Source: Candidatus Aldehydirespiratoraceae bacterium (GTDB lineage Bacteria; Actinomycetota; Acidimicrobiia; Acidimicrobiales; Aldehydirespiratoraceae). From it: a stretch of 64,000 bases of DNA. Below are positions 12,534 through 44,826 of the stretch, in pieces (positions within the stretch are counted from its first letter, which is position 1; every line of letters starts with the position of its first letter). The DNA is taken from NCBI GenBank assembly GCA_965204595.1, contig CBDBEW010000014.1, positions 656,107 to 720,106 on the forward strand, read 5' to 3'. Position numbers and translations under genes: made by a program. The notes beneath the pieces were generated by a model. It saw only the letters and a program-made list of their open reading frames with translations, did no database searches and was not told where the DNA came from.

Positions 12534-12554
12534 CCGATTCCCTATGGTTCTGAC

Positions 12555-12983
12555 GTGAGCGCGACCGGGCGGTGCGCGTGCGGTGAGGTGTGGTTCAGTA
12601 TCGACGGGCCGTTGCGGCCGGTGGTCAACTGTCACTGTTTCCGCTGCCGTCGGTGGACGGGCCATTTCATGGCCGCGACGCAGGCCGCGGTGGACGACAT
12701 CACAATTGACAGGGGTGCCGAGGCAGTGAGCTGGTGGGTTCCCGAGGAGGAACCCGACGTCGCCTACGGCTTCTGCTCTCAGTGCGGTGCCAGCCTATTC
12801 TGGCGCAGTAGTTCCAACCCCGGCAGCTACTCGATCGCCGCCGGCACTCTCGACCAGCCGACGGCTCTCACCACCGTGCATGCTCTGTTCGTGGCCGAGG
12901 CCAGCGACTACCACCGCCTCGACGACAGACTCTCCCACGACCGCTACGATTCACCCGCCAGCGGTGCCGTCGTAACCGCATAA
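12555..12983 (+). CDS. GFA-family (glutathione-dependent formaldehyde-activating / CENP-V-like) zinc protein.
   Basis: Cys pattern CACGEV...NCHCFRCRRWTGH...FCSQCGASLFW. It has a GTG start and GC-rich codon usage like the rest of the island. Confidence 0.8.
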   Translation: MSATGRCACGEVWFSIDGPLRPVVNCHCFRCRRWTGHFMAATQAAVDDITIDRGAEAVSWWVPEEEPDVAYGFCSQCGASLFWRSSSNPGSYSIAAGTLDQPTALTTVHALFVAEASDYHRLDDRLSHDRYDSPASGAVVTA

Positions 12984-13000
12984 GACGGGGGATTACGGTT

Positions 13001-15942
13001 ATGCCTGACACAGAGTTCACCCCCCCCCCCCCCCCGCTGGACCACATCAGTCGGCCAGTACTGAATCGACCCCATGAGGAGCCGACGCGTCATTGGCAGT
13101 TAGCCGAGGACAACACCTCTACAGGTGAGGTGATCGAAGGAAGGCGACTGAGCCAAGCGCTTGTGGTCGTGCCGAAGGAGCGCGGTTCTCAGCAGCGGTT
13201 GGACGTTACCGAGGCGGAGCAGAACGATCTGGTCAACCGCATCCGCGACGCCGTTGCAGGATGGAGACAAGCCAATTATCCAGGCGCGACCGCGGCAACG
13301 AGGCAATTGTTGCAGCACTGGCGCAGCGAGACCAACGAACCCCGATTGTTCTTCGCCCAGGTTGAGGCAGCGGAGACGCTCATCTGGCTGACCGAGGCCA
13401 ACGCCGGCCATTATCCGGTGCTCAGAGAGGCTCGACGGGAACTAGAAGAAGCCAACCGGGACTACAACACCGGCATCGGCCGTCTGGCGGTGAGGATGGC
13501 CACCGGGTCGGGGAAGACGGCGGTTATGGGCATGGTGATCGCCTGGCACGCCGTGAACGCGGCCGTTTCGCAGCGCCGCGACGACCGCTACACCACCTGC
13601 TTCTTAGCCATCGCACCGGGGCACACCGTCCGGGAGCGGTTGGCGGTGCTGCATCCAGCGCATCCTGAGAACGTCTATAACGAGATGCGGCTTCTGCCGG
13701 AGAGCAAACGAGGCACGTTGGGAGCGGTCAAGGTCCAAGTGCTGAACTTCCAGGCGTTCCAGCGCCGTGACCGGCTGCAGGCTGCATCCAGCGACGCCAA
13801 GAAGCTGCTCCGATCCGGACGTAAGACGGCCGAGCTTGAATCAATGTCGGCGGTGCTCGATCGAGCACTGCGCGGCTTCCCCACAGGCCGGGATGCTCCA
13901 AAGGTGTGCGTGCTCAACGACGAGGCCCACCACTGCTACCTGCCCGAGGCTGGCCGGCGCACGTCGGAGGATGACGATTCCAAAGCGGCGGCTGTCTGGT
14001 TCGGGGCACTGGAGGGTTTGCGCGACACGGATCGACTCGGGCCGGTCTACGACTTCTCAGCGACCCCCATCTTCATCGAGGGGACAGAACGCAGGGAGCG
14101 CATGTTCCCGTGGGTTGTCTCGGATTTCCCACTGATGGACAGCATCGAGTCTGGGCTGGTCAAGATTCCGCAGGTGCCCGTGGACGACGACTCCGCTAGC
14201 GAGGAGGTTCGGTGGCGCAACCTCTATGCAAACACCACACCGAAGACGGTCAGACGGGATGACGTACCGCCGGAGTTGAAGCGGGCTCTCACAGCTCTGT
14301 ACCGAAGCTACGAGCAGAAGTTCAACCAGTGGATGCGCCCGGATGACCCGGATAAGAAGATGCCCACGCCTCCGGTGTTCATCGTGGTGGCCAACAACAT
14401 CGCCAACGCCACCGCCATCGCGGACCACATCTCCGGGTGGTCCGAGGATCGCTCCGACGGTTCGGTGGTCTACCACGAGGGCGCCTGTCCCCTGTTCACC
14501 AACTATCGCTCTGACGGCCCTACCGAGCGGGTCCACACCCTGCTGGTGCATTCGCAGCTCGAGGGCGAGGCCAACCTGAGCAGAGCGATCAAGTCACAGG
14601 CCGACCGGCTGAGGCTCCCGGACGACAGCCGCGACGACCGCGACATAGTCCGTGGCGCGTTGAACTCAGTCGGCAAACCTGGAGGACTCGGTGAGCACAT
14701 CCGCTGTGTGGTGTCGGTGCAGATGCTCACCGAGGGTTGGGATACCCGCACCGTCACCCACATTCTCGGCTACCGAGCCTTCTCCACTCAGTTGCTCTGT
14801 GAGCAGGTGACCGGACGAGCGCTCCGCCGCTCGAACTACGACAACTACGACGAGGAAGGCTTGCTCGTCGCTGAGTACGCCGAGGTGATCGGCGTGCCGT
14901 TCGCCTTCATGCCGGTGAAACGCCCCAGAGACAACCCCGAACCGCCGAAGCCTCGCTACGAGGTTCACAGCGTGCCCGGGCGCCGTGACCACGGCATCGA
15001 GTTCCCGAATGTTGAGCGTTATCTGACCGAGCCTGGAGCTGACGGGTTCCGCTTGGACCGGGAGCGTGTCAATAGATGGGTACCCAAGGGAGTCGGAGAG
15101 ACGGTGCTTGAGGGTTCGGTCGGAGGCACCAAGATCATCAGCGCAGAAACGAGGATGCGTGAGCAGCAGATGCTCACTCGCTTGGCCGCAGGTCTTGTAC
15201 GGCGCTGGGGCCAACGCATGGACGACAACGGCGAGGGCTGGCGAGCTCGAAGGCGGCTGTTGTTCTACGACGCCATCAGAATCGTGAAGGCTTGGTCGAT
15301 TGAGGCCGGGGTCACCGAAGTCCACTACGACAAGCTCGGATCGAGCAACCATGGATCAGGCGATCAAGGAGATAGATGACGCCTGCGAGACCACAGGCGG
15401 TTCTGTGGACAAACTCGTCGCCGCATTCGGGCATCCGATGCTGCTGAACACTTCGGGCATCAAGTTCGAGACCAGCCTGTCCGACCGCCACTCTGCCGAC
15501 GAAGTCGGAACTGAACATCGCTGCTTGCCACTCACAGTTAGAAGCGGACTGCGCCCGAGTGCTCGACAAGAATCCCGATGTCATCAGCTGGGCACGCAAC
15601 TTTCGACTCGGCTGGAGCGTGCCCTACCTCTGGGATGGTTCCTGGCACAGATACGAACCCGATTTCGTGGCTCGCTTGTTTGGAGACCGCGAGGACGAAG
15701 AAGCCGTTCATCTCATCATCGAGTGCAAAGGCGTGCCCGACGACCAGAGCGAGCGCAAGAAGCAATCCATCACGAAACGTTGGATTCCGGCGGTTCAGTC
15801 GTCGGCGCAGTTGCCGAAGTGGCTGCGCCAATGGTCTTTCGTGGAACTGGACCGCCCTGACGGCGTGGCCATTGACCTGAAGGTCGCTATCAGCGCGGCC
15901 CGAACCGAGCATCCAAAGTCCACCGAGCAAGGAGCGGCGTGA
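13001..15942 (+). pseudogene. res: Type III-like restriction subunit (Res: SF2 helicase plus C-terminal PD-(D/E)xK nuclease), interrupted by two frameshifts.
   Basis: Helicase motifs MATGSGKT and VLNDEAHHCY lie in the frame of 13001..15379. Homology-like sequence continues in a second frame (MDQAIKEIDDA...GIKFETS, about 15351-15480). It then moves to a third frame (PTKSELNIAACHSQLEADCARVLDKNPDVISWARN...YEPDFVARL...HLIIECKG), which ends at 15942. Confidence 0.8.
13020..13035 (+). repeat. Homopolymeric C16 tract inside codons 7-12 of res.
   Basis: Counted directly: c at 13020, then 13021-13035. It encodes the PPPPP run in MPDTEFTPPPPPLDH. Confidence 0.95.
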
Positions 15943-18497
15943 TGGCCAAACGAGCCAGCACCAAATCCACAGATCAGTACACACACCCGTCAGCGAAGCG
16001 GGTCAACCTGCCCACCGAGCAGACCAGCAAGACCATGAGTGACACCGACCGTCGCCCGATCATGCATGAGCCCCAGACAAGGGAGATCGACGACGAGCCC
16101 ATCCTCGCTTGGAACCGCCAACCCGCAAACCAGGACGGGCACGCCGCCCATCCGCTCTACGTACGGGAGAAGGTCCATCCCGCGGCGTTCGTCAAGCTGC
16201 TCCAGGGGGGTGGCGACCAACCACAACTGTTCTCGGACTTCAACGGGCTGCCCTCCCCCGACGCCGCCTACGAGTGGTACCAACACTCGGCCAATTGGTC
16301 CAACCGGCTCATACACGGTGAGAGCACCCGAGTCATGGCTTCGCTACTCGCTCGGGAGAACATGGCTGGCAAGGTCCAGATGATCTACTTCGACCCGCCG
16401 TACGGAGTCGGCTACAAGTCCAATTTCCAGGTGTCGGTCAACAATCGGGAAGTGCCTGAAGGAGCCAAAGGGCGACCCCACGACACGCGTACTATCCGGG
16501 CTTTCCGCGACACCTACGAACGCAACATCCACTCCTACCTTGACCTCACCCGCGAGAAACTAATCTTGATGCGTGAGTTGCTCGCCGACAGTGGTTCGCT
16601 GTTCATGCAGATCGGCGACGAGAACTTCCATCGCGCCGCGGTTTTGCTCGACGAGGTGTTCGGCGCTGAGAACCGCGTAGCAACGATTCCATTCGCCACA
16701 ACAAGCGGCTCATCCTCTCGTACCTTGCCCAGCGTCGCCGACTTCCTGTTGTGGTACGCGAAGGACAAAACTCATGTCAAGTATCACCAGCTGTACGAGT
16801 CACTTACGAGACCAGAGAAAGTCAAATACATGACTTGGCATGCGATGGTGGAGCTACGAGACGGAACTACCACTCGTGCTCTAACATCTGAGGAGCGTGA
16901 GGACCCAGACAAACACCTACCCGCGGGAGCTCGTCTCTATAGGCGCAGGGCACTTGATTCGCAGGGGCATCAAGAAGGCCGGTCCGATCCGTACCACTGG
17001 GACGGGCATGACTGGCCCTGCGCAGCCGGTCGCCACTGGAGCGTTTCTCACGAGGGCATGGATCGCCTTGCTGCGCTCGGTCGCCTAGACGGTGTTTCGA
17101 CATTAACTTGGAAGAGCTACGAGGATGAGATTCCGGGTCGTCGCATAAACAACATGTGGCACCAGCAGGCATATGCATCGGACAAACGCTACGTTGTGCA
17201 GACCGCCGAAAGTGTGATCGCACGATGCGTGCTGATGGCAACCGACCCAGGTGACCTCGTACTCGACCCTACCTGCGGCGGAGCCACCACGGCCGTCGCC
17301 GCCGAGAAGTGGGGACGACGATGGATAACCTGCGATACCTCCCCGGTCGCTGTCTCAATCGCTCGCCAACGACTCTCTACGGCGACCTTCCCCTACTGGA
17401 CCCTGGCCGATTCAGCAGACGGTGCGCTCCAGGAAGCAGAACTGTCAGGCAAACCGGAGGGTTCCCCACCTGAGGGAGGGTGGGGTAATGACCCAGCCGA
17501 GGGATTCGTTTACGAGCGCGTTCCCCAGGTCTCCGCCAGCGTCTTGGCCTACGACCTAGATCCCGACCCCATCATGTTGGTTGACCGGCCGCACAAGAAA
17601 CGAGGCGTGACCCGCGTAACGTCGCCGATGACCGTCGAGAGCGAACAGCCTTGGGCGACAGTCATCCCGCTCGAAGGCACCGACGACGAGTTGGTGGTCG
17701 CGCACGGCGATTTCTCCGAAGCGGTGGAGGCCGCGTTGCTGAACCACACGATCAAAGGTGGCCGCGACAACGCCGACATGACCATCCGCGCCTTGGAGCC
17801 GTGGCCCAGCAGTTCCCAACTGCTCGCTTGGAAGGCCACCTACACCATCAAAGCCGGCGCAGCTGAGCACGCCGCCGCCGTCATGGTCGCCGCCGAGGAT
17901 GTGACCGTGCCCGGCGAGATGGTTCGCGAAGCGGCCCGAGAGATCACCGACAGCGCGGAACGAGCCGACGTGTTGCTTGTGGTCGCGTACGCCTATGCCG
18001 CTGATGCACCAGCGGATGTAGGACGCATCAAGGTGGCTAGAGCACAAATGAACCGCGACCTGATGATTCGTGAACTGTCCACCGAGAAAGACCACGAGGC
18101 GTTCGTCATCATCGGCGAACCAGACATCCGCGTCCTCGACGACTGTCCCGGCGGCCAGATAGCCGTGGAGATCTGCGGTTACGACACCTTCGACCCGGCC
18201 ACGGGCAACGCGTCGGACGGAGGCCCCGACGACGTCGCCTGCTGGATGCTCGACACCGACCACGACGGAGAGAGCTTCTACGCCCGACGAATCCACTTCC
18301 CCGGAGCCGACAACGACCGCCAGATCAAGAAGCTCCTAAGGGAGCTGGGCAAGAACGCCGACGACGTGGAACAAGAAGCCCTCACCGCCATGCGCTCCGC
18401 CCCCTTCGACCCACCCGAACGAGGCCGAATCGCCGTAAAAATCGTCACCGCCACCGGCATGGAAATGACCACCACCCGCGAAACCCCAAAGGCGTGA
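15939..18497 (+). CDS. mod: Beta-class N6-adenine/N4-cytosine DNA methyltransferase (type III Mod-like); apparently intact.
   Basis: MIYFDPPYGVGY (motif IV) precedes VLDPTCGGATTAVAAEKWGRRWITCD (motif I). The ATG at 15942 overlaps the res stop (TGATG). The C-terminal ~300 aa are unassigned. Confidence 0.85.
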   Translation: MMAKRASTKSTDQYTHPSAKRVNLPTEQTSKTMSDTDRRPIMHEPQTREIDDEPILAWNRQPANQDGHAAHPLYVREKVHPAAFVKLLQGGGDQPQLFSDFNGLPSPDAAYEWYQHSANWSNRLIHGESTRVMASLLARENMAGKVQMIYFDPPYGVGYKSNFQVSVNNREVPEGAKGRPHDTRTIRAFRDTYERNIHSYLDLTREKLILMRELLADSGSLFMQIGDENFHRAAVLLDEVFGAENRVATIPFATTSGSSSRTLPSVADFLLWYAKDKTHVKYHQLYESLTRPEKVKYMTWHAMVELRDGTTTRALTSEEREDPDKHLPAGARLYRRRALDSQGHQEGRSDPYHWDGHDWPCAAGRHWSVSHEGMDRLAALGRLDGVSTLTWKSYEDEIPGRRINNMWHQQAYASDKRYVVQTAESVIARCVLMATDPGDLVLDPTCGGATTAVAAEKWGRRWITCDTSPVAVSIARQRLSTATFPYWTLADSADGALQEAELSGKPEGSPPEGGWGNDPAEGFVYERVPQVSASVLAYDLDPDPIMLVDRPHKKRGVTRVTSPMTVESEQPWATVIPLEGTDDELVVAHGDFSEAVEAALLNHTIKGGRDNADMTIRALEPWPSSSQLLAWKATYTIKAGAAEHAAAVMVAAEDVTVPGEMVREAAREITDSAERADVLLVVAYAYAADAPADVGRIKVARAQMNRDLMIRELSTEKDHEAFVIIGEPDIRVLDDCPGGQIAVEICGYDTFDPATGNASDGGPDDVACWMLDTDHDGESFYARRIHFPGADNDRQIKKLLRELGKNADDVEQEALTAMRSAPFDPPERGRIAVKIVTATGMEMTTTRETPKA

Positions 18498-18499
18498 GC

Positions 18500-18651
18500 A
18501 TGCGACTCGCATGGCTCGACCTCCGCCATTCCGCCGCTTCGAGAGCGCCCGCGTGAATCTCGACGCCTCCGTCATCGCCCTCGTCGGCCCCAACGAAGCC
18601 GGAAAGTCAACACTCCTAGATGTCGGTTCGCGTGAGGTTGTTGGCGCGTGA
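18500..18651 (+). pseudogene. Stump of an AAA/ABC-type (SMC/OLD-like N-terminus) ATPase gene, frameshifted and truncated after the Walker A motif.
   Basis: ATG at 18500 gives MRLAWLDLRH, then there is a 1-nt gap (cat-tcc where cat-ttc is expected). The next frame reads FRRFESARVNLDASVIALVGPNEAGKSTLLD and stops at 18649-18651. Confidence 0.55.
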
Positions 18652-18810
18652 TGCGGTGGGCTGCCAGGTGGAGATACCGCTGTCGGGGGCGATAGTCGCT
18701 CAACTCGCCGGTGCCCGGAGCGAGTACGACCACGTTCCGCGACACAAACAGGCGTTCCGCGATCGCCATGGCCGGATCCTCAGTCTCAAGATCGAGCGCG
18801 ACGGCTGCGA

Positions 18811-19437
18811 CTACGGCAGAGCCGTGTAGTCGGTGTCGTCCCGTGCCCGCTCGAAGTGCGTGTAGTCCAGTCTGTGATTCCACAACCGAAGCCCGGGGCG
18901 TATGATCCGACGACGCGGCTGCTCTGGACTCCACCACATCGCTGTCTCGACTCGCTTGCCGCTGTCACGCGCGACCTCGATCGCCGGGACGAGATCGCTG
19001 TCCGCTGACACCACCACAGCCACGTCGTATGCATCGTCTCGGGCGTCGAGCGCTATGTCGAGGGCGATCATCACATCGATGCCCTTCTCCTCGGCTCGCC
19101 ATGAGACGACTTCACCAGAGGACCATGCGATAGGTTGGTAGCGAACCGGCCGGGTCTTGACTGTCACCAGGGGTTGCGCCTCCCAACTGGCGAACTGGTG
19201 GGCAGACCCAGCCTGAGCTCTTGGCCCGGTCTTGGGGCCAATCCGACCTCGGTACACCTTCACCGCAGTCAGTGCACGAGCAGGATCGACCCTCTCACCG
19301 AGCTCGACGAGCAGTGTGCCGAGGCGCAGTGGATCTACGTGTCCGAACGTATAGGGATCACGTTGCGGATCGCCGAAGACCTCGCGAGCCCCGAAGCGCA
19401 AATTCTCATAATCGATGAACACCGACACCCGCGTCAT
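18811..19437 (-). CDS. NYN-domain (LabA/DUF88-like, PIN-fold) predicted ribonuclease.
   Basis: RVSVFIDYENL ... EKGIDVMIALDIALDARDDAYDVAVVVSADSDLVPAIEVARDSGKRVE. I prefer ATG 19437, which is preceded by GGAGG with a 6-nt spacer, over the track start at 19533. Confidence 0.8.
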   Translation of the reverse strand: MTRVSVFIDYENLRFGAREVFGDPQRDPYTFGHVDPLRLGTLLVELGERVDPARALTAVKVYRGRIGPKTGPRAQAGSAHQFASWEAQPLVTVKTRPVRYQPIAWSSGEVVSWRAEEKGIDVMIALDIALDARDDAYDVAVVVSADSDLVPAIEVARDSGKRVETAMWWSPEQPRRRIIRPGLRLWNHRLDYTHFERARDDTDYTALP

Positions 19438-19650
19438 GGCCCGCCTCCAAAACGAATAGTCCCCGCCATTCCCGGCGAACCGGCAAGACGGGGAAGAATA
19501 GGAACAACCTAAAGCACCCCAAGAGTTCTGCACACTATTTTCTGCAATGTTCTGTCATCGCTCGACGCGGGCACTCTGGCCCGGCCGGATCCTCTCCCGG
19601 CCGACACCTGGGTGCCAGGCCCGCCCGCGGCGGTCAGCTGGCTGCCTCGA

Positions 19651-30623: not shown

Positions 30624-32282
30624 GTGGTGATGGTTGAATTTGTTTACTCTGATATGTTGCCGCTTGGTGTTGACAACACCGAGTATAGGTTGATATCCAC
30701 ACAAGGTGTGTCCACTTTCCAAGGCGGCGGTCGCACATTCCTTAAAGTTGATCCCGAAGCCATCCGCGCTCTCACGGGTGTGGCGATGCGTGACATTGCC
30801 CATTATCTGCGAACCGACCATCTCCAACAGTTAGCAAACATCTTTGACGACCCCGAAGCTTCAGCCAACGACCGCTTTGTGGCTAACGAATTGCTTCTCA
30901 ACGCAAATATCGCCGCCGCTGGAGTGCTGCCGATGTGTCAAGACACAGGCACCGCCATTATTATGGGCAAAAAAGGTGACCAGGTGGTCACCTTCGGAGA
31001 TGACAGCGAAGCGATTTCGGCAGGCGTGTTTGACACCTACACCGAAACGAACCTGCGTTATTCCCAGCTCGCACCGCTCACAATGTTTGAAGAACGAAAT
31101 ACTGGCAACAACCTGCCCGCACAAATAGAAATCTACAGCAAACCCGGCAACACCTACGAATTCTTGTTCATGGCTAAAGGCGGCGGGTCAGCCAACAAGT
31201 CGTTTCTGTTTCAAAAAACCAAAGCCTTGCTAAACGAAAGATCGCTGCTGGACTTCCTAGACGAAACACTACGAGCCGTGGGCACCTCCGCGTGTCCGCC
31301 TTATCACCTCGCTCTAGTAGTTGGCGGCACTTCGGCGGAGTTCAACCTCAAAACCGCCAAGCTAGCATCAGCCCACTACCTTGATAATCTGCCCACCAAC
31401 GGCGATGCCACTACAGGACACGGCTACCGAGACATCAAATGGGAAGCCAAAATTCTTGCCCAAACCCGTGACTTCGGTATCGGCGCACAATTCGGAGGCA
31501 AGTATTTCTGCCACGACGTGCGGGTAATTCGCTTACCCCGTCACGGTGCCTCAAACCCAGTTGGTATAGCTGTGAGTTGCTCAGCTGACCGCCAAGCAAA
31601 GGCCAAAATCACAAGCGAAGGGATATTTCTGGAACGCCTAGAAACCAACCCGGCACTTTTTTTGCCTGAAGTAAAACCAGACGAACTTTCCGATGAAGTA
31701 GTAAACATCGACCTCAATCAGCCAATGCAACAAATTCGTAACCAACTAGCTAAATGTAAGGTAAAAACACGCTTGTCTTTGAACGGCACCCTCATTGTGG
31801 CCCGCGACATCGCTCACGCCAAAATCGCTAACAGGCTCAACCAAGGCGAGCCGATGCCGAAATATCTTCAAGACCACGCAATCTACTACGCAGGGCCAGC
31901 CAAAACCCCCAAAGGCTACGCTTCGGGTTCCTTTGGTCCAACAACCGCCGGCCGGATGGATTCCTATGTGTCCCAATTGCAAGCCGCGGGGGGTTCAATG
32001 GTGATGCTAGCCAAAGGTAACCGTTCCCGCGCAGTTACAAAATCATGTGCCCGCTACGGCGGATTCTATCTTGGCTCTATCGGTGGTGCCGCTGCCCGTC
32101 TCGCAGCTGATTCAATCAAAAATGTGGAAATAGTTGAATACCCAGAACTAGGTATGGAAGCAATCTACAAGATCGAGGTGGAAAACTTTCCCGCCTTTAT
32201 CGTCATCGACGACAAAGGCAACGATTTCTATTCAGAAGTAACAACACCAATCCACCTCCGAAAAAACACCACCCAAGTATAG
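30624..32282 (+). CDS. fumA: Class I (Fe-S, FumA/FumB-type) fumarate hydratase.
   Basis: Near-colinear with E. coli FumA by recall: [97 protein letters not shown]. Confidence 0.9.
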
Positions 32283-32338
32283 CTTTGTCCTAGCCAGCAC
32301 TAGGGCAGACTTGCGTAAACGGGCTAGGACAAAGCGGA
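32258..32338 (+). repeat. Left copy of the ~80-bp direct duplication (fumA 3' end plus intergenic region plus tpx 3' end core).
   Basis: It aligns by eye with 34146-34223. The perfect 20-nt core ACGGGCTAGGACAAAGCGGA is at 32319-32338. Confidence 0.8.
32282..32335. terminator. 14-bp inverted repeat (gctttgtcctagcc / ggctaggacaaagc) between convergent genes; possible bidirectional terminator or recombination site.
   Basis: Read directly. The arms are at 32282-32295 and 32322-32335 with a 26-nt loop, and no clear U-tract follows. Confidence 0.35.
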
Positions 32339-32415
32339 GAGGGCGAACAAGGTCCTACGTCTCGATTTCGGGTTCCCAGCGTTCGTGCTTGCGGACTGTC
32401 AACGACAGACTATTG

Positions 32416-33960
32416 TCACTGCGACAAGTATTTCCTGATCATTTCGGTCAGTTCCGCCAATGAGATTCTGCCGGCTTGATAGTCCCGCATTGCGGCGCGG
32501 ATCATGGCCAAGGTTACTTGTTGTTCGCCCTCGCCGTCTTCGGCTGTTTCTGCACCTTGTTGGGTCTCAGGTTGCGATGTCACGTCCGTGTTCTGGGGTT
32601 GTGCATTGTCTGATGGGGGCGGAGTGCTGGGACGTGGAGCGCGACCCGGAGGGGGCGCGGTGTTGGTGTCTCCAGGTGGTTGAGGCGTCGTATCCCCGGT
32701 TACGTCGATTGAGGTGCCTGATATGCCTGTGGTGGTGATTTGTGGTGCTGCTACGGTTACTGAGATCGTGTTGACTGGCACACGGTCGTAACCTCCGCCT
32801 TGAGCTGTATGGGAGACGGCCGCTTCGCCTGCCTCGAGCGCGTTGATCACGACTGTCTGTGCTGTGTCCCAGTTCGCGGTTGTGAAGGTCAAGGTTCTCG
32901 GGCCAGGTCCGCCGCAATACAGGCAAACACTGGGATCGTAGCCGCGAAACGTCGTAGGACGAATGACGGCCACTCGAGGATTGTTCGTACTCGCTGCGAC
33001 TGTAACGGCGCCCGTTGGCCGAACCGCCAGGACGACTGTGTAGCGGACTGATGAATTGGGTGCAGTGCTCAGCGTCGATTCGCTTGTGGTGATCCCCCCG
33101 CCGATTGTGTCGTTGTCGTCGATGAGGACGGTAACGTTGTTGACGACTCGTTGGCCTGCGTTCGCGCCTACCACGATGCTCTCCGATGTCTCAATCAACT
33201 CGTCGTCGACTATCGCGATGTTGGCGCTCGCCGACAGCTGTCCATTCGCGATAGTGAAGGCTGCAGGCAGGGTATAGTCGGCGGTACTGGCCGTCGAGGC
33301 CGTCTGAGCATCGAGAGTGACTGCGACCCCGTTGGTCGGCGCCGGGGAATTCAACGTGGCAGTGACAGACACCGTACCCGCGGATTCGTTGACGCGGCCC
33401 CCTGCGGCACTGGTGCTCAAGGTCACGACTTGACCTCGGTAGATCGTTATGCTGTAGGTGTTGGTATTGGAGCTTGAGTCCGTCAAACGTACTTCAAAGG
33501 TGTTGCGCCCCGGTGCCAGTGGCATCGCAACTTGAGGCGGACTTGTCCCCGCCGGGTGGACGGTACGGCCTAGAAATGAGAAGCTGAAGGTGAAGTTCGG
33601 CTCTGTGCGGGGGACGACACGGAATTCGTGTCCTGGTGAGGTTCGCGCCACGACGGCGCTGTCTGCGGCGTCCGCAAGCGTGGGCCGAATCGTGATGTTG
33701 TCCACTCCTCGGGGCACTTCTGCCGTGTAGCTGGTCACGCCTGCTGCGAAAACTGGCGACAGGGTGACTCTGTGAGCGTTGTGAGTGCGCGGGTCGTTTC
33801 TGTACCGGCGGAACAGTTGCAGGTTGCTCAGGGTTGGGTCGCTGCTCTGGGCCTGGCCCGGAAGAGCCGGCGCCAACAGAGCCGACAACGCCGCGATCAC
33901 CACGAATGCGGCCAACCTTGCTCGCAGCCGACCCCGACTGTGTTCGTTGCGAAAGCTCAC
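32416..33960 (-). CDS. Secreted surface protein with a cadherin-like beta-sandwich and Calx-beta domains and a Pro-rich acidic tail.
   Basis: Signal RLRARLAAFVVIAALSALLAPALPGQA/QS follows GTG 33960. PTLSNLQL...VTLSPVFAAGVTSYTAEVP..VDNITIRPT is cadherin-like. SAGTVSVTATL...VAVTL...STADYTLP..FTIANGQLSASANIAIVDDELIETSESIVV is Calx-beta. The track start (TTG 34011) would read through the C20 tract. Confidence 0.7.
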   Translation of the reverse strand: MSFRNEHSRGRLRARLAAFVVIAALSALLAPALPGQAQSSDPTLSNLQLFRRYRNDPRTHNAHRVTLSPVFAAGVTSYTAEVPRGVDNITIRPTLADAADSAVVARTSPGHEFRVVPRTEPNFTFSFSFLGRTVHPAGTSPPQVAMPLAPGRNTFEVRLTDSSSNTNTYSITIYRGQVVTLSTSAAGGRVNESAGTVSVTATLNSPAPTNGVAVTLDAQTASTASTADYTLPAAFTIANGQLSASANIAIVDDELIETSESIVVGANAGQRVVNNVTVLIDDNDTIGGGITTSESTLSTAPNSSVRYTVVLAVRPTGAVTVAASTNNPRVAVIRPTTFRGYDPSVCLYCGGPGPRTLTFTTANWDTAQTVVINALEAGEAAVSHTAQGGGYDRVPVNTISVTVAAPQITTTGISGTSIDVTGDTTPQPPGDTNTAPPPGRAPRPSTPPPSDNAQPQNTDVTSQPETQQGAETAEDGEGEQQVTLAMIRAAMRDYQAGRISLAELTEMIRKYLSQ

Positions 33961-33977
33961 GGGGACTCTCAACCTTC

Positions 33978-33997
33978 GGGGGGGGGGGGGGGGGGGG
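33978..33997. repeat. Homopolymeric G20 tract (C20 on the coding strand), 18 nt upstream of the probable GTG start of the Calx-beta gene.
   Basis: Counted directly: 33978-33997. Confidence 0.95.
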
Positions 33998-34145
33998 AGA
34001 GGCGGCTGCAATTCTGTTGTAAATGGGCATGCCGTCGGAACTCCTTGCAGAATTGTGCGGTGTGGCTACCTGCCACTAATAATAAGATAGCATAACTGTC
34101 TTGTCGTTGGGACTCTTTTTGCAGAATTGTTCGCTGGCACGAGTT

Positions 34146-34223
34146 GCGACAAAACACTAGCCAAGTATAGCTTTTGTTCTTGCCAGTACTTAGGCAAACA
34201 GTCACGGGCTAGGACAAAGCGGA
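34146..34223 (+). repeat. Right copy of the ~80-bp direct duplication. It contains a degenerate fumA 3' end (cga caa aac act agc caa gta tag).
   Basis: The perfect 20-nt core is at 34204-34223 and overlaps the tpx stop. The left ~58 nt match 32258-32318 imperfectly. Confidence 0.8.
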
Positions 34224-34709
34224 AAGTGCGGCCTCGTAGTTGGGTTCGTTAGCTATTTCGTTCACCAATTCGGTGTGGGTTACCTTACCTGTCCCGTCAA
34301 TCACCACAACAGCACGAGCAGCAAGACCAGCGAGCAAACCATCAACAATACGCACACCATAATCTTCAAGCACCTCGGGATGGTTGAACGTTGAACCCGT
34401 TTTCACGTTGTCTATCCCCTCCGCACCGCAAAATCGCTTTGCTGCCGGGGGAAGGTCAGCAGATACACACAACACACTAACGTTGTCTGCACTTGCAACT
34501 CGCTCATTGAACTCACGAACACTTCTAGCACAAGTCGGAGTGTCGATTGAAGGAAAAATGTTCAACACCAACCTTTGTCCCGAAAAGTCCGCCAAAGAAA
34601 TCGAGCCAAAATCTGAGCCACTAAGCACAAAATCTGGTGCCGTGCTACCAACTGCAGGTAGTACACCGTTTGTATTTGTGGGATTGCCACCAAGTGTTAT
34701 TTCTGCCAT
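34209..34709 (-). CDS. tpx: Thiol peroxidase (atypical 2-Cys peroxiredoxin).
   Basis: APDFVLSGSDF..ISLADFSGQRLVLNIFPSIDTPTCARSVREFNER. Confidence 0.9.
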   Translation of the reverse strand: MAEITLGGNPTNTNGVLPAVGSTAPDFVLSGSDFGSISLADFSGQRLVLNIFPSIDTPTCARSVREFNERVASADNVSVLCVSADLPPAAKRFCGAEGIDNVKTGSTFNHPEVLEDYGVRIVDGLLAGLAARAVVVIDGTGKVTHTELVNEIANEPNYEAALSALS

Positions 34710-42646: not shown

Positions 42647-43615
42647 TTATGCTCGAGGGTGAGTTTTGCGGTGAACCTCGCGCAAACGTTCACGACTAAC
42701 CCGCGTGTAAATCTGAGTGGTAGTTAATTCAGCGTGACCTAAGAGTTCTTGCACGCTGCGTAAATCAGCACCACCATCTAGCAAATGAGTTGCAAATGTG
42801 TGACGCAAAGCATGTGGATGGGTAGGCGAAACGGCCCTGCGATCCAGTAAACGGCGGACATCTCTTGGGGTAAGTGCCTTACCACGTTGGTTTAAAAAAA
42901 TCTTATCATCAGGGCTAACTTCGCAAACCATCTTGGGACGACCATCTTTGAGCCACGCACTCAAAGCCGTCTTGGCGGGTTCAGAAACAGGTACCCGCCG
43001 TTGTTTAGAACCCTTGCCCCAAACCGTTATCACATCAGCAGAAATTAACAAGTCTTGGTAACGCAAACCACAAAGTTCGCTTACCCTCAAGCCACTGCCA
43101 TACAACAACTCAATCACCGCACGATCCCGCAATTCAATCTCTTGGTGATGCTTTGCAACCTCGGCTGATGTCGCCGAACCCTTAAATAAACCATCTAGTT
43201 CACTAGCTTTCAGAACCTTTGGTAATGCAGACTTACCGCGCGGCGCAGACAACGTCATAGCTGGATCTACCTTGAGGTGACCCTCTCGACACGCCCAGCG
43301 AAAGTAGCTACGCAACACAGAAGCCTTACGTGCGGTTGTTCGTGGCGCGTATTTCATGTGTAGCTCTGCCATGTAACTACGTAGATGCCGCCGGGTAACC
43401 AAATCAGGTGAGGATACAAATTGAGTTTGCAACCAATCTATAAACGCAACTATATCCCGGCTATAAACGGCTCTCGTTGAAGAGGCTTGACGGGTCAGCG
43501 AATCTAGCCAGCTTTGATGATGCCAAAGCTCCATGCCATCCACCATAGCAGTTGATGAACTCTGCCGACACAGGCGGGGTAGTAGCGAAGTGTTTTTCCT
43601 AAGCGCAGTTAACAT
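42647..43615 (-). CDS. xerC: Tyrosine recombinase XerC/XerD family.
   Basis: ELLYGSGLRVSELCGL, HALRHTFATHLLDGGADLRSVQELLGHAELTTTQIYT. Confidence 0.85.
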   Translation of the reverse strand: MLTALRKNTSLLPRLCRQSSSTAMVDGMELWHHQSWLDSLTRQASSTRAVYSRDIVAFIDWLQTQFVSSPDLVTRRHLRSYMAELHMKYAPRTTARKASVLRSYFRWACREGHLKVDPAMTLSAPRGKSALPKVLKASELDGLFKGSATSAEVAKHHQEIELRDRAVIELLYGSGLRVSELCGLRYQDLLISADVITVWGKGSKQRRVPVSEPAKTALSAWLKDGRPKMVCEVSPDDKIFLNQRGKALTPRDVRRLLDRRAVSPTHPHALRHTFATHLLDGGADLRSVQELLGHAELTTTQIYTRVSRERLREVHRKTHPRA

Positions 43616-44826
43616 TTGCGCCTCACCCTCGCTCCATCGTATTGAACCAAACCCGCTGAGATAAGTTCCTCTAGCAGAGCCGCAACCCGCACAACCGCAA
43701 AACCACTGCGCGTAACGATTTGATCGGTTGAAGTTGGTCCATCATCAATGGCCTCAAGCACACACGAAGCTTCCTTGCTAAGTTCCTTAGCCAACAAAGA
43801 ACTGTGGTTCTGCGACAAAGCAACCTTGTTGACCGGTTCAGCTACATTTCGGCGAGCATTTGCGGCAATCTCGCTCAAACCTAAAGCGACCAACACATCT
43901 TTCACATCGCGAACCGGAGCGCATCCATCCATAAGCAAGGCATTCGTGCCTTCGGCGGCGGGATTTCGCACAGAACCGGGCACAGCCATGACCTCAATAT
44001 CTCTGCGCTGTGCTTGTTCAACGGTTAGCAACGATCCCCCAACCGCTCGTGATTCGACCACCAAAAGTAAATCAACGAACGCGGCGATAAGGCGATTGCG
44101 CGCAGGGAAACGCCAAGGTTCTGGCTTGGCACCAAGCGGGGCTTCAGCCACCAAGGCTCCTCGTTCAACAATTTGATGCCACAGCGACATATTGCGCTGT
44201 GGGTAAACCACATCCACCCCACTACCCACCACCGCCAAAGGAGGCGCAGCATCAGCTGCTAAAGCTCCGCGGTGTGCTTCCCCATCAATACCCAAAGCTA
44301 GACCCGAAACCACCACTACACCCTTTTCGGCAAGCCCCGTGCCAAGTTCACGGGCAACCTCACGACCTATTGATGAAGCTCGGCGCGTACCAACAATCCC
44401 CACGTGCGGCAATTCGGGAGCAGGAATCGTACCTCGCCGAAACAAGATTGGTGCTGGGTCTATGTCGTGTTGAAGCTGGGGAGGGTGATCAGCATCACCG
44501 CAGGTGGTGACCTTCACATTACTTGCATCCAAACGAACCGCGATATCGCTCAAGTCGAACTTGTTAGCAGTCGCTCGCCATTCACAGAGAACCTCAGTAG
44601 GTGCCACATCACTAGCTAGTTCCCCCGACACAACCGCTGCAAAGGCCTCGCTCGGGGTTCTGTGTTTCAGCAATTTATGCAAACGACGAGCGGTGGCCCC
44701 ATTCAACGCAGCAAGAGCCGCAGCGTAAACATCTTCACGCGCCTTGCTATCAGGTTGTGGACATTCGATCTGTAGCGAACTTTCAGATTGAGCCGCACCT
44801 TGAACACCCAATAAACCTTCAGACAT
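43609..44826 (-). CDS. dprA: DNA-processing protein DprA.
   Basis: GIVGTRRASSIGREVA...VVVSGLALGIDGEAHRGAL...TLAVVGSGVDVVYP..N. Confidence 0.85.
   Translation of the reverse strand: MSEGLLGVQGAAQSESSLQIECPQPDSKAREDVYAAALAALNGATARRLHKLLKHRTPSEAFAAVVSGELASDVAPTEVLCEWRATANKFDLSDIAVRLDASNVKVTTCGDADHPPQLQHDIDPAPILFRRGTIPAPELPHVGIVGTRRASSIGREVARELGTGLAEKGVVVVSGLALGIDGEAHRGALAADAAPPLAVVGSGVDVVYPQRNMSLWHQIVERGALVAEAPLGAKPEPWRFPARNRLIAAFVDLLLVVESRAVGGSLLTVEQAQRRDIEVMAVPGSVRNPAAEGTNALLMDGCAPVRDVKDVLVALGLSEIAANARRNVAEPVNKVALSQNHSSLLAKELSKEASCVLEAIDDGPTSTDQIVTRSGFAVVRVAALLEELISAGLVQYDGARVRRKC

Follow-up and report, generated by a model that had tools for sequence, protein, structure and literature searches.

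In a 64,000-nt window of a 3.2-Mb genome assembly (the window being the whole stretch of DNA analysed here, to which all coordinates refer), a foreign single-gene fragment was found between the convergent genes fumA and tpx, flanked by two imperfect direct copies of the junction of these genes. The interior is foreign, the repeats are images of the target, neither a recombinase nor transposon ends accompany the insert, and the arrangement recurs elsewhere in the genome. Since some 81-87 bp of the target would have been duplicated, we place the locus in the class known as insertion with long target duplication, and the capture of the fragment in the palindromic fumA/tpx terminator by such a recombinase-independent event is our preferred explanation, with a probability of roughly two in three.

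The repeat pair and the fumA-tpx junction

A previous sequence-only reading of this DNA had described a perfect 20-bp core within a longer, imperfect duplication, and both elements were recovered. The 20-mer ACGGGCTAGGACAAAGCGGA is located at 32319-32338 and at 34204-34223, with 20/20 bases the same at both junctions (0 matches in 100 shuffles), and these were its only two sites in the whole assembly when two mismatches were allowed. The 14-mer arms of the hairpin were also confined to the fumA/tpx locus in a genome search, and the 20-mer was not found in JGI metagenomes. Local alignment of the flanks with the core removed gave a score of 54, compared to 15.3 +/- 2.2 in 1000 shuffles (maximum 30), confirming that the similarity claimed to the left of the core is genuine. 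Overall, the copies (87 bp and 84 bp; Table 1) are ~78% identical, and no alignable sequence was detected by local alignment further to their left.

Both copies mirror an unbroken junction consisting of the fumA stop, ~40 bp and the tpx stop. The right copy spans the stop codon of tpx (34209-34211) and its last four codons, in agreement with the overlap that had been noted, and it keeps a degenerate fumA tail that was correctly recognized as such, reading RQNTSQV* versus RKNTTQV* in the true gene. The last six fumA codons (KNTTQV) are a lineage-specific extension, and because the fumA genes of congeners end at ...LR*, the tail in the right copy includes the lineage's own extension. The copies consequently bear lineage-specific marks of both neighbours, namely this extension and the SALS* end of tpx. 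The earlier proposal that the flanking repeat is a duplicated insertion site is borne out, in that each copy is an image of the fumA stop, the terminator and the tpx stop. As part of the preferred explanation, the insertion probably duplicated the target over about 81-87 bp, and we infer from the repeat itself that the target was originally present once.

The perfect 14-bp inverted repeat reported for the left copy was present, and the folding energy of the hairpin is -32.7 kcal/mol (z -4.8) on one strand and -35.4 kcal/mol (z -5.2) on the other, versus a right copy whose folding is no better than that of shuffles (z -0.35). The left hairpin is presumed to be a bidirectional terminator, now serving fumA on the left and the inserted gene on the right.

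Table 1. Coordinates of the features at the fumA-tpx locus
Feature	Position	Strand	Basis or content
fumA, class I fumarate hydratase, intact	30624-32282	+	Pfam Fumerase E=1e-78, Fumerase_C E=1e-84
Left copy of the putative target duplication	32259-32345		True fumA tail and stop, 41-bp spacer containing the intact palindromic terminator, copy of the tpx 3' end
Perfect 14-bp-stem hairpin	32282-32335		Arms 32282-32295 and 32322-32335
Foreign fragment, 1.72 kb	32339-34061	-	blastn homology to GC-rich relatives L057 and L058
Secreted beta-sandwich repeat protein gene, 514 aa	32416-33960	-	GTG start at 33960
G20 tract (C20 on the coding strand)	33978-33997		Sequence and alignment
P1, last 33 bp of the donor-homologous fragment	34030-34062		Recurs as P2
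Junction filler, 44% GC, without donor homology	34063-34146		39 bp AT-rich, P2, 10 bp
Right copy of the putative target duplication	34147-34230		Degenerate fumA tail and stop, decayed hairpin, core 34204-34223 (true tpx 3' end)
tpx, thiol peroxidase, intact	34209-34709	-	ORF; Redoxin E=1e-31

In relatives, 5-35 kb separate fumA from tpx and hold a conserved metabolic block, compared to 1.9 kb here. None of 40 related species genomes had fumA within 5 kb of tpx, and nothing like the inserted gene was present in the fumA-tpx interval of the relatives. The sequence-only reading would have had to yield if relatives carried the same gene at the same site with no duplication, and this was not the case, their gene being at another locus. 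No empty fumA-tpx site was found in any collection searched, none of which held a genome close enough: the best tpx homologue among 5.8 billion proteins was 77% identical, and the exact tpx protein had no record elsewhere.

The inserted gene, its probable donor and its junctions

The GTG start of the inserted gene aligns with the ATG of its homologue in L058, and the product has a signal peptide, a Cadherin-like domain, Calx-beta-like domains, a Pro/Thr-rich linker and a short C-terminal helical hairpin. It had been stated that the GC-rich interior encodes only a secreted cadherin-like/Calx-beta protein. The GC-rich composition, the single real gene between the copies (NCBIfam gave nothing else) and the Cadherin-like beta sandwich (PF12733, residues 65-175, E=1.3e-9, 38.8 bits against a cut-off of 24.2) all held, but the Calx-beta match (PF03160) reached 18.3 bits, under the curated cut-off of 27. 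Residues 170-420 resemble repeats in the giant Calx-beta-type proteins of this genome (37-47% identity). The structure model had a mean pLDDT of 35 and was confident only in the C-terminal helical hairpin. The most likely role of the product is that of a binding protein, either secreted or exposed at the cell surface. The gene is complete and under purifying selection, with a dN/dS of 0.34-0.36 against its homologues and a dS of 0.33, of which roughly 0.2 falls on the host branch.

The foreign fragment comprises a ~100-nt 5' region, the coding sequence and a 74-nt 3' region that stops in the loop of the donor terminator, of which half is kept. Its blastn blocks against L057 and L058, two GC-rich Acidimicrobiia metagenome contigs, were 83-91% identical and ended at 32342 and 34061; overall, it showed ~85% nucleotide identity to a chromosomal gene that adjoins mrp in these contigs and has no flanking repeats there. 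Two core genes of these contigs, mrp and selA, share only 69-76% nucleotide identity with their host counterparts (87% for the mrp protein), and the insert is therefore a horizontally acquired single-gene fragment. Its GC content is 60.4%, compared to ~50% for the host, and its dinucleotide signature distance was 89-99 to the relatives versus 121-136 to the host. The description of a foreign gene placed in the fumA/tpx terminator stands. The GC3 of the insert (0.66, against 0.64-0.67 in the homologues) and the symmetric substitutions reveal no shift, and amelioration dating is uninformative for that reason. The gene was not found in the 40 related species genomes, in the rest of this genome or at its own mrp locus; its close homologues were only two, both in ENA metagenome contigs, and searches of GTDB species genomes and JGI metagenomes returned domain-level matches only (25-44% identity). 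Again as part of the preferred explanation, the fragment probably arrived by horizontal transfer from a GC-rich bacterium that belongs to the same genus-level group of Acidimicrobiia.

At the right junction, the end of the fragment (P1) recurs within the filler as P2 (34102-34136, ~83% identical), with a similarity score of 29 compared to 12.8 +/- 2.0 in shuffles (0/1000). The minus strand of the filler holds a promoter-like -35/-10 pair (34107-34079) that faces into the inserted gene. In addition, the C20 tract ends 18 nt upstream of the start codon, where both homologous contigs have ~14-15 C. The tpx gene is upstream of the inserted gene, and both are on the minus strand. The new gene could be expressed through read-through from tpx, from the promoter-like AT-rich filler or from both, and the amount produced may change with C20 tract length.

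Routes of insertion and sister cassettes

The sequence-only reading took the repeats for att sites made by an integrase, in which case they would represent attL and attR, flanking what is left of an integrative element that had entered at the tpx 3' end and whose integrase and remaining genes have since been deleted. The core is indeed the same at both ends and overlaps a gene 3' end, and the same window contains a GC-rich defence island of 12.7 kb at a distance of 7 kb. We nevertheless regard this origin as improbable and did not retain the claim: neither the insert nor its immediate flanks contain a recombinase gene or a fragment of one, the core has no further copy in the genome, and the similarity past the core is to the fumA tail of the recipient, a sequence that would be missing from an attP arm. 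The genome has three tyrosine recombinases, one XerC-like, one XerD-like and one divergent (on another contig), and the closest to the insert is the XerC-like gene, 8.4 kb off. On both sides the insert stops where it ceases to match an ordinary chromosomal gene region of the relatives, and the other cassettes of this genome, described below, are flanked by unrelated repeats. The companion idea that the insert is the scar of a larger element likewise found no support, since the matching gene in the relatives is not part of a mobile element.

Several other routes were considered. A DNA transposon or insertion sequence was ruled out, since no terminal inverted repeats pair the insert ends and the duplication measures ~85 bp compared to <15 bp for transposons. 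The insert had no plasmid or phage similarity and matched no Rfam family (e.g. a group II intron). An integron cassette was rejected because the repeats hold the host genes' own ends and the integron integrase search remained below the cut-off. A Ku gene was sought in the genome and was absent, which ruled out Ku-dependent end joining as the capture route, and an mRNA retro-copy, suggested by an insert that spans the 5' region to the terminator, was set aside as the genome has no source copy.

At least six other small accessory cassettes of this genome lie between unique target duplications of 65-136 bp that are unrelated in sequence. The duplicated targets are gene ends, terminators or promoters, and the cargo includes an AAA_21+DUF4276 pair, phospholipase-A2-like proteins, Fic, an AAA_16 ATPase and a C5 methylase. 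Identity between flanking repeats ranges from 78% to 97% across the cassettes. Low-copy repeat pairs of like size and spacing were direct in 29 cases and inverted in 2. For the groEL sister cassette, a search of congeners for an empty site by gene order gave only one genome with groEL within 1.5 kb of guaA. The same architecture with unrelated repeats therefore points to a target duplication that does not depend on sequence. This series also bears on the concern that strain variants were mis-joined during assembly, which might be raised for a metagenome-assembled genome of 16 contigs with 3.75% estimated contamination and a mosaic composition. We consider such an artefact highly improbable, given that the copies differ by substitutions and indels, that the junctions lie within a 2.06-Mb contig, that the insert is a complete gene which is under purifying selection and has homologues in other genomes, and that the architecture recurs with different repeat identities.

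Under uniform divergence, a perfect 20-bp core within copies of ~78% identity has a chance of about 0.007. We attribute its perfection to selection, on tpx codons in the right copy and on the stem in the left copy, and recombination within the core, by crossover or gene conversion, is an equally good explanation. A crossover is the central step of a Campbell-type origin, which we judge unlikely, in which a small DNA circle carrying the gene and a diverged fumA/tpx junction recombined once with the empty site within the core. Such a circle could derive from the repeat-flanked cassette of a sister strain, and the right copy would then be imported sister-lineage DNA. A perfect core with ~71-78% identity to its left is the pattern of a crossover between diverged homologues, and the right copy is low in GC and carries the lineage-specific fumA tail and tpx end, features that trace it to this lineage or a near sister and not to the GC-rich donor. 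Repeat-flanked cassettes can also, in principle, excise and re-integrate, a cycle that has been proposed for restriction-modification units (PMC2853133). This origin, however, leaves the first repeat-flanked copy unexplained and calls on a sister lineage of which none is known, the best tpx homologue being so distant. The younger cassettes, with repeats of 94-97% identity around foreign cargo, fit local duplication followed by decay, and at the present locus the repeats have diverged by ~0.22-0.27 per site, comparable in magnitude to the synonymous distance between the insert and its nearest relatives, so that decay in place is sufficient.

The preferred explanation, insertion with long target duplication, would proceed in three steps. 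Loss of the 5-35-kb metabolic block would first have left fumA and tpx abutting on one hairpin. A break or stalled replication fork at this palindrome may then have been repaired by capture of the foreign fragment, with ~85 bp re-synthesised, either by fill-in of staggered ends or by a template switch back upstream, to give the duplication; the same re-synthesis could have produced the untidy right junction, which contains a nested repeat of 33 bp as well as the filler. Finally, the left copy would have been kept intact, presumably because it terminates fumA and now the new gene as well, and the right copy would have retained only the tpx coding part while its hairpin decayed.

It is possible, at somewhat less than even odds, that this lineage routinely gains foreign genes by a cargo- and recombinase-independent route that duplicates 65-136 bp of target. 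If so, duplicated gene ends with a terminator or promoter would let both neighbours keep their signals, and one genome would hold a dated series of events spanning the observed range of repeat identities, with adhesin-like, phospholipase-like, Fic, defence ATPase and methylase genes as cargo. Long target duplication would then be an outcome of host repair or replication and not a property of restriction-modification systems, and the series would supply junctions (microhomology, nested repeats and filler) for a mechanism unexplained since 2000. At the present locus, the duplication leaves fumA its intact terminator and tpx its own 3' end, with the new gene downstream of tpx and co-oriented; a symbiont-type actinobacterium can in this way gain a probable surface protein gene with two housekeeping genes undisturbed. 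For annotation, repeats of this kind should not be called att sites by default.

Comparison with known systems

This type of insertion has already been described and is rarely discussed (Nobusato, Uchiyama, Ohashi & Kobayashi 2000, Gene 259:99; Furuta, Abe & Kobayashi 2010, NAR 38:2428, PMC2853133), and the locus adds an example whose cargo is not a restriction-modification system. In line with the 2010 screen, the repeats are direct and longer than 30 bp (87/84 bp), the insert is shorter than 20 kb (1.8 kb) with no mobility gene in or adjoining it, and the repeat is not multi-copy in the genome. The screen differs from our case in its demand for restriction-modification genes, the cargo here being a secreted beta-sandwich protein; that demand was a screening and not a mechanistic criterion in the published work, whose authors suggested that DNA breakage by the restriction-modification unit itself drives insertion (PMC2853133). 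The repeat reaches over the 3' end of an adjacent gene, a feature shared with the H. influenzae examples of long target duplication (PMC2853133). Compared to the published cases, the copies are old and diverged (78%), and the right junction has a nested 33-bp repeat and filler. Long target duplication has so far been discussed almost only for restriction-modification systems, and the different cargo together with the sister cases argues that host repair or replication machinery, and not the cargo, makes the duplication.

Genomic islands that tyrosine or serine recombinases integrate at the 3' ends of genes or tRNAs likewise have a direct repeat whose identical core overlaps the target gene and restores its 3' end. 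In contrast to these islands, the present locus has no integrase, its arms match the recipient, its cargo is a bare chromosomal gene fragment, and the repeats of its sister cassettes are mutually unrelated. The minimal mobile elements of Neisseria, which Saunders and Snyder are said to have described in 2002, are reportedly swapped by homologous recombination in the flanking genes with no target duplication. They share with this locus variable content between the same conserved genes and a lack of mobility genes, but the flanks are duplicated here. Homology-facilitated illegitimate recombination in natural transformation, an account of which is credited to de Vries and Wackernagel and to Prudhomme et al., both in 2002, is said usually to delete recipient DNA. 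It resembles the present case in that no dedicated recombinase is needed to capture the foreign DNA and the junctions fall at homologies that are short or imperfect, and differs from it in that ~85 bp were duplicated here and no anchoring homology between donor and target was seen.

The duplicated fumA/tpx junction

The 20-mer ACGGGCTAGGACAAAGCGGA, which the sequence-only reading had placed on both sides of the insert, was confirmed at both positions, and a search of the source genome (G000; 3.2-Mb, 16-contig assembly) allowing two mismatches found no third site, both occurrences lying at the fumA/tpx locus. This core is embedded in a longer repeat whose left and right copies are ~78% identical. 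With the core removed, the flank alignment still gave a local score of 54, compared to 15.3 ± 2.2 in 1000 shuffles, upholding the imperfect similarity that had been described to the left of the core, and no alignment between the two sites was found beyond the left edge of the repeat. As had also been claimed, the right copy spans the stop and the last four codons of tpx and retains a degenerate fumA end (QNTSQV*, against the real KNTTQV*). Both copies run from a fumA tail, stop codon included, through about 40 bp to the tpx 3' end, and each is therefore an image of the uninterrupted fumA/tpx junction; since the junction is present in both, the abutting arrangement is older than the insertion. 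The predicted inverted repeat of the left copy was found to be a perfect hairpin with a 14-bp stem, whose stability is very high on either strand (z about -5), and the right copy folded no better than shuffled sequence.

The fumA gene of G000 is six codons longer than that of its congeners, which ends in ...LR*, and the extension is present in the right-hand pseudo-tail too; tpx ends in SALS*, compared to ...AALG* in congeners. Because both copies carry these lineage-specific ends and a low, host-like GC content (0.47-0.52), the duplicated segment is DNA of the recipient lineage and not DNA carried in by the GC-rich insert.

The convergent orientation of fumA and tpx is shared by 17 congeners and by three of five further genera in the family, but with 5-35 kb between the two genes. 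The seven congeneric intervals inspected were of normal composition and shared a common set of ordinary metabolic genes, annotated in the congener G006 as acyl-CoA thioesterase and dehydrogenase, luciferase-like oxidoreductases, CoA-transferase, phosphotransferase, and cystathionine gamma-lyase and beta-synthase types. Since G000 holds only distant paralogues of these genes (30-47% identity), the abutting junction with its palindrome is a derived state of a reduced, AT-shifted lineage. No close relative of this lineage was found in any database searched, and the closest tpx homologues carry the NCBI labels Acidimicrobiaceae and Acidimicrobiales. Separately, another congener carries a tandem segmental duplication of ~5.7 kb at its fumA locus (G005:C1:1641900-1674500; loci L076, L077), in which a second copy of fumA, 5'-truncated and covering residues 201-547, shows 99.7% identity over 1075 bp.

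Coordinates of the fumA/tpx insert, tyrosine recombinases and sister cassettes (bare numbers, window positions, the window being C14:656107-720106; C14 and C5, contigs of G000)
Feature	Position	Strand	Annotation
Left repeat copy	32259-32345
Right repeat copy	34147-34230
20-mer core	32319-32338 / 34204-34223
Insert	32339-34061
Inserted gene	32416-33960	minus
P1	34030-34062
P2	34102-34136
Promoter-like match	34107-34079	minus	sigma-70-like -35/-10
tpx	34209-34709	minus	Redoxin, E=1e-31
Tyrosine recombinase	about 42650-43741		XerC-like
Tyrosine recombinase	G000		XerD-like
Tyrosine recombinase	another contig of G000		divergent
Sister-cassette repeat pair	C14:1593881-1593974 / 1595973-1596066
Sister-cassette repeat pair	C14:1605805-1605939 / 1608120-1608255
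Sister-cassette repeat pair	C14:946312-946386 / 949469-949554
Sister-cassette repeat pair	C5:473816-473903 / 475213-475300
Sister-cassette repeat pair	C5:310943-311007 / 312238-312302
Sister-cassette repeat pair	C14:435637-435718 / 437512-437594

A gene fragment from a GC-rich relative

The insert has a GC content of 60.4%, compared to about 50% in the host, and is matched by two Acidimicrobiia metagenome contigs from ENA, L057 and L058 (64-66% GC), with nucleotide identities of 83-91% in individual blocks and 85% across the coding sequence. The homology extends from about 100 nt upstream of the start codon, where a poly-C tract is common to all three sequences (20 C here, about 14 and about 15 C in the two contigs), to 74 nt past the stop codon; this end lies in the loop of the donor terminator hairpin and abuts the left core. 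In L057 and L058 the gene is found at the margin of a variable region, upstream of mrp/apbC, fxsA and selAB; it is not flanked by repeats there, and no integrase lies within 10 kb. The mrp locus is present in G000, and no second copy of the inserted gene was found in this genome, that locus included. DNA divergence from the host counterparts is far greater for the core genes of these contigs (mrp, 87% protein and 76% DNA identity; selA, 69% DNA identity) than for the insert. In addition, GC3 is equal in the insert (0.66) and its homologues (0.64-0.67), the substitutions between them are compositionally symmetric (58 against 49), and the dinucleotide signature distance of the insert is 89-99 to GC-rich relatives versus 121-136 to the host, on a scale where 1.7-kb host pieces reach at most 86. 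The gene was not found in 40 related species genomes, and elsewhere there were domain-level matches only, chiefly in sponge-associated metagenome-assembled genomes. Taken together, homology, composition, the contrast with core genes and absence elsewhere lead to the conclusion that the insert is a single-gene fragment acquired horizontally from a GC-rich relative.

The inserted gene encodes a protein of 514 aa with a signal peptide, a Cadherin-like beta-sandwich domain above the Pfam cut-off, and, after a series of repeats, a Pro/Thr-rich linker and a short helical hairpin. The GC-rich interior with a single cadherin-like gene stood as described, but the Calx-beta-like repeats fell below the Pfam cut-off; they show 37-47% identity to repeats of the giant proteins of G000 itself. 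With a dN/dS of 0.34-0.36, the intact gene is under purifying selection. A 23-residue loop with two Cys, QTICPERTEADEECGVAVTQPTG, present in both homologues, is missing at residues ~110-111 in the first beta-sandwich domain, the frame being otherwise intact. The predicted structure was too poor in quality for use, and we read the product as a secreted or surface binding protein.

Two features of the wider genome were also noted. Directly upstream of mrp in G000, the position of the cadherin-like gene in L057 and L058, are two tandem small genes with a common 100-bp 5' region that is 91% identical (C14:2027795-2027894 / 2028602-2028701), adjoined by a giant repeat-protein gene of ~70% GC. G000 is a compositional mosaic, with 167 segments of at least 1 kb and GC of at least 58.5% summing to 812 kb (25%) on a ~50% GC background, and the 12.7-kb island of the window (12540-25265) has a signature distance of 30-33 to GC-rich relatives versus 170-182 to the host; this mosaic suggests that an AT-shifted lineage has taken up DNA from congeners on a large scale.

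Mode of insertion and expression signals

The sequence-only reading had proposed an att-like duplication, as produced by site-specific integration at a gene 3' end, or a remnant of a larger element that had lost its integrase. This att/integrase view is only partly supported: the duplication with an identical core at a gene 3' end stands, but no recombinase gene or remnant was found in or beside the insert, and the whole genome has three tyrosine recombinases. There were no terminal inverted repeats at the insert ends, no plasmid or phage similarity and no Rfam family in the insert. Under uniform decay, a perfect 20-base core beside ~22% substitution divergence has a probability of about 0.007. 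Selection can explain this perfection, as the core belongs to the tpx reading frame in one copy (right) and to the terminator stem in the other (left). The 20 bases would be accounted for equally well by a crossover or conversion tract within the core, as expected if the insert had entered by Campbell-type integration at the fumA/tpx junction; we consider this route unlikely, since the divergence between the repeat copies is comparable in magnitude to that of the insert from its nearest relatives at synonymous sites (dS 0.33, about 0.2 of this on the host branch), and decay in place since an old insertion is therefore sufficient.

The right junction is messy. The final 33 bp of the donor fragment (P1) recur as P2 with 83% identity (alignment score 29, compared to 12.8 ± 2.0 in shuffles), with 39 bp of AT-rich filler in between. 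These nested imperfect repeats and filler would fit template switching or break repair, and hint at insertion through repair or replication at the palindrome; Ku is absent from G000. At the left junction, the 16 nt at 32335-32350 (CGGAGAGGGCGAACAA) are complementary at 15/16 positions to 32521-32536, 170 nt away inside the inserted gene (expected number, about 0.03 per 2.1 kb), and the donor contigs have other bases than G000 close to the junction; the complementarity may reflect template switching, or it may be fortuitous.

After the insertion, fumA would retain the intact hairpin. Since the inserted gene is transcribed toward this hairpin and retains only half of its own terminator, it can use the hairpin from the other side. 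Directly upstream, in the same orientation, lies tpx, with the decayed hairpin between, and the promoter-like match of the filler region is directed into the inserted gene; read-through from tpx and this putative promoter are candidate sources of expression, and the C20 tract is a candidate expression switch. A genome-wide count for G000 gave 37 poly-G/C tracts of 13-23 nt, among them those at 33978-33997 and 13020-13035 of the window, and not one A/T tract reaching 14 nt; of the 37, 33 fall inside, or no more than 500 bp away from, GC-rich segments, which cover 30% of the genome (p = 1.5e-13).

Sister cassettes and insertion with long target duplication

Self-comparison of G000 revealed at least six further small accessory cassettes, each enclosed by a pair of unique direct repeats, 65-136 bp long, in which the target is duplicated. 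From cassette to cassette the repeats are unrelated; within pairs they are 84-97% identical, and they take in gene ends, terminators or promoters; none of the six cassettes contains a recombinase. One holds an AAA_21 and DUF4276 pair inside a duplication of part of the tsaD 3' end, and another a phospholipase-A2-like gene inside the duplicated last 35 nt of groEL and its terminator. The remaining cargo comprises a phospholipase-A2/ricin-lectin protein, a Fic protein, an AAA_16 ATPase and a C5 methylase; both phospholipase-A2-like proteins are secreted, one with the ricin lectin domain. Low-copy repeat pairs of similar size and spacing in this genome are direct in 29 cases versus inverted in 2.

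Insertions with a long target duplication, a class described for restriction-modification systems, involve units under 20 kb without mobility genes, flanked by unique repeats over 30 bp that represent the target and in some cases overlap the 3' end of a neighbouring gene (PMC2853133). The sister cassettes make G000 a useful case series for this process. The fumA/tpx insert is a new member of this known, poorly understood kind of insertion: it agrees with it in every structural feature that could be tested, and differs from the published screen only in its cargo, which contains no restriction-modification genes.
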